DNA from: Ktedonobacterales bacterium
GTDB taxonomy: Bacteria; Chloroflexota; Ktedonobacteria; Ktedonobacterales; Ktedonobacteraceae
DNA: 64,000 bases
Assembly: GCA_038209195.1 (NCBI GenBank)
Contig: JBBQXY010000002.1
Span: 9,606-73,605 of the forward strand
Direction of reading: 5' to 3'
Position 1 is the stretch's first letter. Each line of letters opens with the position of its first letter. Both the position numbers and the translations under genes were made by a program. Below are positions 56,490-57,763 of this stretch, in pieces. The notes below the pieces were generated by a model. The model was not told the origin of the DNA, made no database searches, and worked only from the letters and a program-made list of their open reading frames with translations.

Positions 56490-56879
56490 ATGATGAGCAA
56501 ATCCGCAGAAAGACTGTACTTGAAAGAATTTGGGGCCGCGATGACGGCCTACGTGATCCTGGTGATAGTTTCAACTACGTTGATCAATATCAGCCCAAGT
56601 TCAGCATGGTGGCGCATTCCACTGGCATTGACTCCGATTATACCGGCGATTTTCGCCATGATCGCCTATATGCGCTTCGTGGGGCGGGTAGATGAACTGC
56701 AACGGCGCATCCAATTCGAGGGATTGGCTTTTGGCTTTGGCAGTGCTGGTATCCTTACCTTCACCTATGGTTTCCTAGAAAATGTTGGATTCCCGCATAT
56801 TAGTTGGCTTATCGTCTTTCCATTGATGATCGCGCTCTGGGGCATCGGCGTTGCCCTCGCTTCATGGAGATACCGATGA
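56490..56879 (+). CDS. small integral membrane protein (4 TM)
   Basis: The 129-aa protein has four hydrophobic helices. Its stop overlaps the start of the XRE regulator (ATGA). Confidence 0.7.
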   Translation: MMSKSAERLYLKEFGAAMTAYVILVIVSTTLINISPSSAWWRIPLALTPIIPAIFAMIAYMRFVGRVDELQRRIQFEGLAFGFGSAGILTFTYGFLENVGFPHISWLIVFPLMIALWGIGVALASWRYR

Positions 56880-57094
56880 ACAACAAGCTGAAAGTGCTCA
56901 GGGCGATGCGCAACTGGTCACAGGCTGACCTTGCCGAACGCTTGGATGTCTCGCGACAGACAGTCAATGCACTGGAAACGGGCAAATACGATCCAAGCCT
57001 GCCGCTGGCTTTCAAGATCGCCCGCCTCTTCCAGATGCCCGTCGAAGAAATTTTTGCAGCAGAACCAGAACAAACAAACCGAAAGGTTGAATAA
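56876..57094 (+). CDS. XRE-family helix-turn-helix regulator (YozG-like, 72 aa)
   Basis: The HTH core is LKVLRAMRNWSQADLAERLDVSRQTVNALETGKYDPSLPLAFKIARLF. The start is at ATG 56876. The ORF track starts at 56804. Confidence 0.85.
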   Translation: MNNKLKVLRAMRNWSQADLAERLDVSRQTVNALETGKYDPSLPLAFKIARLFQMPVEEIFAAEPEQTNRKVE

Positions 57095-57157
57095 CGAGCT
57101 ATGCATCTTCTCTCATCGTGCTATATACTATGAAGTATGAGAAAGGAGCATACTTCT

Positions 57158-57763
57158 ATGCCTGTACAAATTGATGTCTGGTCTGACTTTGTTTGACCGT
57201 TCTGTTTTTTAGTAGCCTCCAGTTTGGAGAAGCTTCAAGAAACATATGATCTCGCCATTACGTGGCGTTCGTTCCAACTACGTCCCGCTGGTTCTCCACC
57301 GATACCGCCTGAATATCGCGCTAGAATAGAGGCCTCACGTCCCCGTTTTGCCGAACGAGTGCAGCAGGAACTTGGTCTCACGTTGAATGCTGGCCCCTTT
57401 GAGATTGATAGTCGTCCTTCGCTGATCCTCGAGAAATTTTTCGAGGCGCAGGGTAAGGGTGAAGAGGGTCACAAAGCAATCCAAGACGCTTACTGGCTGC
57501 AAGGCCGAGCGATAGATAAACCAGCAGTGCTCAAAGAGCTTGTGCAAGAGGTTGGTCTACCAACCGACAATATCGATGACGTATTGGACAGTTCCGTGTA
57601 TGACGCGGAAGTGTCGGCTGATATCGATCTAGCACAGCAATACGGGCTGGACGCTGTTCCCGCGCTGGTTTTCAACAATAGATACCTGGTGTCGGGCGCA
57701 CAACCATACGATGTATTGCGCAAGGTGGTAGAAAAGGTGCAAGCTGAGGAAGCGGCAACATAA
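57158..57763 (+). CDS. DsbA/FrnE-family thiol oxidoreductase with in-frame TGA at the first Cys of CxxC (selenocysteine candidate, or nonsense pseudogene)
   Basis: AAGGAG (57143-57148) lies 9 nt before ATG 57158. The frame reads MPVQIDVWSDFV-TGA(57194-57196)-PFCFLVASSLEKLQ and is continuous with track ORF 57224..57763. Confidence 0.7.
57215..57233 (+). other. small hairpin downstream of the in-frame TGA (possible bacterial SECIS apical stem-loop)
   Basis: In gcCTCCAgttTGGAGaagc, a 5-bp stem carries a G/U-containing loop. The loop G lies 28 nt from the UGA. The structure is weak. Confidence 0.3.

Follow-up and report, generated by a model that had tools for sequence, protein, structure and literature searches.

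Locus and gene model

The window, which is the whole stretch of 64,000 nucleotides of Ktedonobacterales DNA that was analysed, contains a DsbA/FrnE-like gene on the plus strand with an in-frame TGA at its codon 13. The features of the gene are as follows.

57143-57148, plus strand: ribosome-binding site AAGGAG, with a spacer of 9 nt to the ATG at 57158
57158-57763, plus strand: full coding sequence of the predicted DsbA/FrnE-like selenoprotein, from ATG 57158 to TAA 57761-57763 with the TGA read through (PF01323 match, structural model and FrnE match)
57194-57196, plus strand: UGA, the predicted selenocysteine codon 13 and first residue of U-P-F-C (codon conservation, Cys homologues and FrnE alignment)
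57203-57205, plus strand: TGT, Cys16, the resolving Cys of U-x-x-C (TGC in 17 and TGT in 15 orthologues, so that the codon varies and the amino acid is kept)
57214-57234, plus strand: SECIS-like hairpin AGC-CUCCA-GUU-UGGAG-AA-GCU (RNAalifold, codon entropy and covariation)
57656-57661, plus strand: codons of Val167-Pro168, the putative cis-proline loop facing the redox motif (V167 and P168 invariant in a 25-sequence alignment)

The frame begins with 12 sense codons, MPVQIDVWSDFV, followed by the TGA and then by PFCFLVASSLEKLQETY. The segment 3' of codon 13 reads PFCFLVASSLEKLQ, and the predicted peptide across residue 13 is ...IDVWSDFV-U-PFCFLVASSLEK. No other stop was present between the TGA and the TAA, and readthrough of the TGA gives a product of 201 aa, in which C16 is the sole Cys besides the predicted Sec13. 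Purine-rich GGA/GGAG motifs were also found at a similar spacing 5' of the start in most of 32 orthologues. The earlier note had claimed that AAGGAG and ATG 57158 open a frame, that this frame continues across the TGA into the listed 179-aa open reading frame, and that the TGA replaces the first redox Cys to give U-P-F-C. Re-reading of the sequence bore out the first claim; the second holds because the listed frame (57224-57763, TTG start) is in frame with ATG 57158 and runs to the same TAA; and the third agrees with the alignment of the motif to CP[FWY]C homologues and to CPWC of FrnE. The TTG at 57224 picked by gene callers is the codon of Leu23 and lies within the hairpin. In the public protein collection, the products called for most close relatives were about 177 aa long (175-185) and lacked the active site, and a few records of relatives were named "DsbA family oxidoreductase" or "hypothetical protein". 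The 201-aa Sec model gives the catalytic centre back to a gene that is routinely shortened by gene callers.

Directly 5' of the gene, at 56490-57094 on the plus strand, lies a small operon that encodes a 129-aa protein, for which no Pfam match was found, together with a 96-aa HTH regulator of the XRE type (HTH_3, E 5e-16). The XRE gene terminates 64 nt upstream of the selenoprotein ATG. The 3' neighbour is a phosphoglucomutase-family gene on the opposite strand. A consensus scan found no plus-strand promoter, including between the XRE gene and the selenoprotein gene, and no terminator, and cotranscription of the XRE operon and the selenoprotein gene is possible. All-against-all BLAST of the flanking open reading frames at 85 loci found no neighbour common to more than 11 loci, and the larger clusters consisted of shadow frames overlapping the selenoprotein gene itself. 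The selenoprotein gene therefore appears to stand alone with no conserved neighbourhood, and the neighbourhood gives no hint on substrates or a redox partner.

Conservation of the UGA codon

A six-frame search of 60 relatives yielded orthologues in 19 further genomes, each with exactly one TGA, which was always located within the translated context ..DVWSDFV-*-PFC... In the alignment of 32 Ktedonobacteria orthologues from at least 23 genera, with identity to the window protein as low as about 51%, the TGA occupied the identical codon in all 32 and was mostly the 13th codon from the start, which was ATG in 31 and TTG in one. Conservation of this codon also extended beyond the class. A scan of species-representative Chloroflexota genomes gave 78 usable loci from Ktedonobacteria, Anaerolineae, Caldilineae, Ardenticatenaceae, Thermoflexales, Promineifilaceae, Chloroflexaceae, and Aggregatilineales, and the codon was TGA in 68, TGC in five, and TGT in five of them. 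Outside Ktedonobacteria, TGA forms occurred in Anaerolineae, Caldilineae, Ardenticatenaceae, Thermoflexales, and Chloroflexaceae. Two Cys forms were found in genus g24. Full-length metagenomic homologues carried C-P-[FWY]-C in the column of U-P-F-C, and the CPWC of FrnE (5cnw) aligned at the same site.

The segment 5' of the TGA was conserved as protein. IDVWSDFV was invariant in the 32 orthologues, and its codons varied synonymously, with four codons each at Ser9 and Val7 and an even split of Asp10 between GAC and GAT (16 each). Invariant residues with variable codons 5' of the TGA indicate purifying selection on a translated segment, which is incompatible with either a pseudogene or a start located after the TGA.

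SECIS-like hairpin

The hairpin at 57214-57234 begins about 20 nt 3' of the TGA and consists of a lower stem AGC/GCU, an upper stem formed by CUCCA (57217-57221) and UGGAG (57225-57229), the apical loop GUU (57222-57224), and an AA bulge (57230-57231), with 8 bp in total and the loop 28-30 nt from the U of UGA. CUCCA-GUU-UGGAG is encoded by the S-S-L-E stretch of helix 1. RNAalifold applied to 19 orthologues predicted exactly this hairpin. Its core is short, with five invariant base pairs and a triloop, and the stability gain in the single sequence was only modest, as the 52-nt stretch folded at -13 kcal/mol with z = -2.2 against shuffles. Although this z value is weak alone, the conservation of the hairpin goes far beyond chance. 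The earlier note had described a small hairpin with a G/U loop at 57215-57233; it proved to be real, with boundaries refined to 57214-57234 and with conservation and covariation. An extended lower stem, with columns 10-17 paired to 44-51, is formed by this sequence; it was rejected because it was not conserved in the orthologues.

Codon usage was strongly constrained within the hairpin. Ser21 was encoded by TCC in 32 of 32 orthologues and Ser22 by AGT in 30 of 30, whereas other conserved Ser residues used four codons, and Leu23 was restricted to TTG and CTG in comparison with six codons at Leu41. The normalised codon entropy was 0.23 within the hairpin and 0.78 outside it (Mann-Whitney p = 7e-5, which is overstated since the sequences are related), and the 8-codon windows with the lowest entropy in the entire gene started at codons 19-22, on the hairpin. 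In addition to this constraint, compensatory changes were observed among 81 distinct Sec-form sequences at three of the five upper-stem pairs, namely columns 24-36 (CG to UA, AU, or GC), 25-35 (UA to GC), and 26-34 (CG to UA). The covariation score was reached by none of 500 shuffles, a p-value that again overstates the case for related sequences. The loop G and U (columns 29-30) were invariant in the 81 sequences, while the three lower-stem pairs differed between classes and the lower stem was not kept outside Ktedonobacteria.

Distant Cys forms had no hairpin at this site. Two Cys (TGC) forms nested in Ktedonobacteraceae, L054 (G156) and L055 (G157), retained a near-intact relic in which a weaker U-G stands in place of one C-G pair; one of the two also has the loop GCU instead of GUU. 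VASSLEKL was still encoded in both. These two forms look like recent Sec-to-Cys conversions that preceded the decay of the hairpin. No SECIS family was recovered when 57100-57400 was compared with Rfam at E <= 10, where the sole match was a chance snoRNA; the phylum-wide SECIS alignment that now exists is a possible seed for a family model.

Selenocysteine machinery of the genome

The earlier note had proposed a search of the genome for selA, selB, selC (tRNA-Sec), and selD, and all four were present. The assembly carries selA (578 bits), selB (370 bits, model positions 3-579 of 581), and a Sec-type selD (385 bits), together with a tRNA-Sec of 95 nt (62.5 bits) that was identified by ARAGORN as tRNA-SeC with anticodon TCA, and all scores were above the curated cut-offs. 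The full-length selB is located on contig C25. In addition, a 26-residue match to the selB N-terminus was observed at the end of the short selA contig C288 (3461-3538, plus strand), possibly the beginning of another GTPase gene that is truncated by the edge of the contig.

The assembly is a MAG, 85% complete and 6% contaminated, so that the linkage of gene and machinery in this organism rests on relatives. Among 61 relatives, 52 carried selA. In Ktedonosporobacter rubrisoli SCAWS-G2, with a closed 11.3-Mb chromosome, the TGA gene (NZ_CP035758.1, 7,123,696-7,124,295) and selA (7,307,659) are on one molecule. The only TGA-carrying relative in which selA was not found, G005, has selB and tRNA-Sec. 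Contigs C9 (70,092 nt) and C10 (68,032 nt) of the assembly are each their own reverse complement over the full length; these perfect palindromes are most likely assembly artefacts of the MAG, and features on them appear twice.

Other in-frame TGA codons were also observed in this genome. The selD gene itself is a selenoprotein gene, with the TGA at position 9241 of contig C47 (position 1531 of locus L010) in the context SCAG-U-AAKMGPEAL, followed by the hairpin GGCGCAG-GUU-CUGCGUC, whose loop lies 36 nt from the UGA and has the GUU sequence also seen in the DsbA-like gene. Two paralogous genes contain an in-frame TGA in LLTPV-U-PMCN, one on C10 (31613, plus strand) and one on the minus strand of C13 (37904 on the reverse complement), with 8-9-bp hairpins and triloops GUG and GUA immediately 3' of the TGA. 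The readthrough product of the C10 gene matched Pfam GRDB (PF07355, glycine/sarcosine/betaine reductase selenoprotein B family) with E 3e-11, and both paralogues are candidates for further selenoproteins of this genome. The idea that the Sec machinery was kept only for the DsbA-like gene was rejected, because several relatives have selA without the orthologue and this genome has other Sec genes.

Reading of the UGA codon

Judged from sequence comparison, the TGA at 57194-57196 is very probably decoded as selenocysteine, in a genuine Sec-encoding gene. Two other readings of an active gene, both very unlikely, were weighed against this one. Translation might terminate at the UGA and start independently at TTG 57224 or at another internal start, producing a 179-aa DsbA-fold protein without the redox centre. 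A TTG is indeed present at 57224, and gene callers pick either this codon or one nearby; in addition, any bacterial selenoprotein is expected to show some termination at UGA when selenium is scarce. This TTG, however, has no ribosome-binding site, lies inside the conserved hairpin, and is replaced in 6 of the 32 orthologues by CTG, which is not a usual start. The product would be devoid of strand 1 and the start of helix 1, and an internal start gives no reason for the conservation of the 12 upstream codons, the U-P-F-C motif, and the ribosome-binding site.

The UGA could also be read as Cys or Trp, by near-cognate suppression or by a Cys-loaded tRNA-Sec, and this possibility has a similarly slight chance. 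The public gene calls P0007 and P0078 give W at this position, presumably by use of another code table, and other systems are known to misincorporate Cys at Sec codons when selenium is limiting. Against this reading, TGA is an ordinary stop in this genome, where it closes 421 of the 1641 open frames that have 400 codons or more; the same count led to rejection of a genome-wide reassignment of TGA. The complete Sec machinery is present, and the conserved hairpin with the invariant GU in its loop is a signature of SelB-dependent decoding. Moreover, lineages that need Cys encode it by TGC or TGT and then lose the hairpin.

A decaying dsbA/frnE-like gene disabled by a nonsense TGA agrees with a frame that is broken under table 11 at 12 codons past the start and with public gene calls that hold only truncated products of 175-185 aa, but it is hardly credible for a codon found as TGA in about 100 species spread over a phylum, in frames free of further stops and frameshifts, with residues kept and synonymous sites variable on both sides of the TGA, and with a conserved ribosome-binding site and start codon (ATG 31/32, TTG 1/32) upstream. 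The pseudogene and the restart at TTG 57224 were the alternatives named in the earlier note, and both were contradicted by the purifying selection upstream and the conserved start region. The note had also suggested a check of the codon in orthologues, which was TGA or TGC/TGT exactly here, with no further disabling mutations.

Under the favoured decoding as selenocysteine, the mRNA hairpin at 57214-57234 would act as a bacterial SECIS element about 20 nt 3' of the UGA. It would bring SelB-GTP with Sec-tRNA(Sec), whose anticodon is UCA, to a ribosome that has paused at this UGA, and Sec would be inserted at codon 13 in place of termination.

Protein fold and predicted function

The 201-aa protein scored 102.3 bits with Pfam DSBA (PF01323), for which the gathering cut-off is 25.6, and the match (E 3.8e-29) covered profile positions 1-189 of 191. 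No NCBIfam model matched at its cut-off, with weak C-terminal matches to other thioredoxin-like (seleno)protein families. The AlphaFold2 model, which was built from the 25-sequence alignment, had a pLDDT of 93.9 and a pTM of 0.88. In the model, strand 1 comprises residues 3-9, Sec13 is located at the N-terminus of helix 1 (residues 14-27), residues 51-161 form a helical insertion, and Val167-Pro168 precedes the final strands (strand 169-172). Pro168 would adopt the cis conformation, as is expected from the fold family. Foldseek placed five Deinococcus FrnE entries on top with TM scores of 0.82-0.85, followed by Streptomyces SCO1869, cytosolic DsbM, HCCA isomerases, YjbH, and kappa-class GSTs; periplasmic or classical DsbA structures were more remote, with TM scores of 0.6-0.65.

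No hydrophobic segment was present at the N-terminus of the 201-aa protein, and a signal peptide could not be accommodated ahead of strand 1, which starts at residue 3. These features suggest a cytoplasmic enzyme. Taken together, we infer from the sequence and the predicted fold that the protein is probably a cytoplasmic thioredoxin-fold oxidoreductase of the DsbA/FrnE type (COG2761, PF01323). In the predicted product, U13-P-F-C16 would lie where helix 1 begins and would face the Val167-Pro168 loop, and Sec13 would serve as the N-terminal nucleophilic residue of the active site. U13 and C16 would be expected to cycle between the selenol/thiol and the selenenyl-sulfide, by which the enzyme would act as a reductase or isomerase on the disulfides, or on other oxidised thiols, of cytoplasmic substrates; the direction of this redox chemistry is presumed.

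Sec and Cys forms in Chloroflexota

Nine state changes were required on a quick maximum-likelihood tree that combined 85 Sec forms with 26 Cys forms, and at least four of these changes were forced by well-supported branches. In this tree, which was midpoint-rooted with no outgroup, Sec forms were on both sides of the root and Cys forms occurred in small nested groups. All Sec lineages have the same hairpin sequence. The tree pattern, read with its midpoint root and no outgroup, and the common hairpin together favour an ancestral Sec with repeated Sec-to-Cys replacement. There is about an even chance that Sec and one SECIS hairpin are ancestral for the FrnE-like enzyme of the whole phylum Chloroflexota, including the aerobic soil Ktedonobacteria. 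If Sec is ancestral, the scattered Cys forms may be later, repeated replacements after which the hairpin decayed. The enzyme would then rank with the selenoproteins that a largely aerobic phylum has kept most broadly and most stably, and its Sec and Cys forms would provide a clean natural series for the study of Sec-to-Cys conversion.

Comparison with known systems

The DsbA-like selenoprotein (COG2761, UxxC) was described as a new family in the Sargasso Sea metagenome by Zhang, Fomenko, and Gladyshev in 2005 (PMC1088965). Members were subsequently detected in Anaeromyxobacter, Desulfovibrio, and Desulfotomaculum (PMC1794560). A count in 2016 gave 41 organisms (PMC5029168), and a 2026 review enters the family as "DsbA-like protein form 1, PF01323, UxxC" (PMC13188914). 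The statement of the earlier note that DsbA-like selenoproteins had been predicted computationally before is therefore correct (PMC1088965, PMC1794560, PMC13188914). The gene described here belongs to this known DsbA-like form 1 UxxC family, and every defining feature of the family that can be assessed in silico was found in it. It shares PF01323, the FrnE-like COG2761 assignment, U-x-x-C with predicted Sec at the first Cys, Cys homologues, and, 3' of the UGA, a SECIS-like hairpin whose small apical loop contains G; the placement was made by these features. Chloroflexota and Ktedonobacteria are not mentioned for this family in PMC1088965, PMC1794560, PMC5029168, or PMC13188914. What is new here is the taxon (Ktedonobacteraceae and, more broadly, most sampled Chloroflexota lineages), the supported SECIS alignment, and the truncation of the public gene calls. 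General knowledge of selenoproteins is unchanged, as the family and the mechanism are already established, but the results predict the use of selenium in a cytoplasmic thiol-disulfide enzyme of Ktedonobacteria and most other sampled Chloroflexota lineages. Cultured carriers of the gene are Ktedonosporobacter rubrisoli SCAWS-G2 and Thermosporothrix hazakensis ATCC BAA-1881.

FrnE of Deinococcus radiodurans (5cnw, 5coh, 5co3, 5xwh, 5cp1), deposited as "a novel disulfide oxidoreductase", was both the best sequence match (E 8e-16, identity about 26%) and the best structural match (TM 0.82-0.85). The two proteins have in common the DsbA fold with a helical insertion, the lack of a signal peptide, and the alignment of C-P-W-C with U-P-F-C. 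They differ in that FrnE has Cys where this protein has the predicted Sec, and in length, with a chain of 260 residues in FrnE and 201 here. The alignment stops at FrnE residue 222, and the C-terminal stretch of FrnE, including the cysteine mutated in 5cp1 (C239S), is absent from this protein. Periplasmic DsbA of the E. coli type is characterised by a Sec-dependent signal peptide, export, and CPHC, none of which applies to the predicted enzyme.

The putative decoding signal resembles the SECIS/SelB system of E. coli fdhF, with a hairpin within the coding sequence just 3' of the UGA and G-U in the apical loop. In comparison with fdhF, the stem is shorter here (five invariant and three variable pairs), a bulged U is not evident, and the loop reads GUU, whereas the loop of the fdhF SECIS is GGUC. 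The variants CUCC-GGUCU-GGAG observed in some orthologues resemble this GGUC loop.
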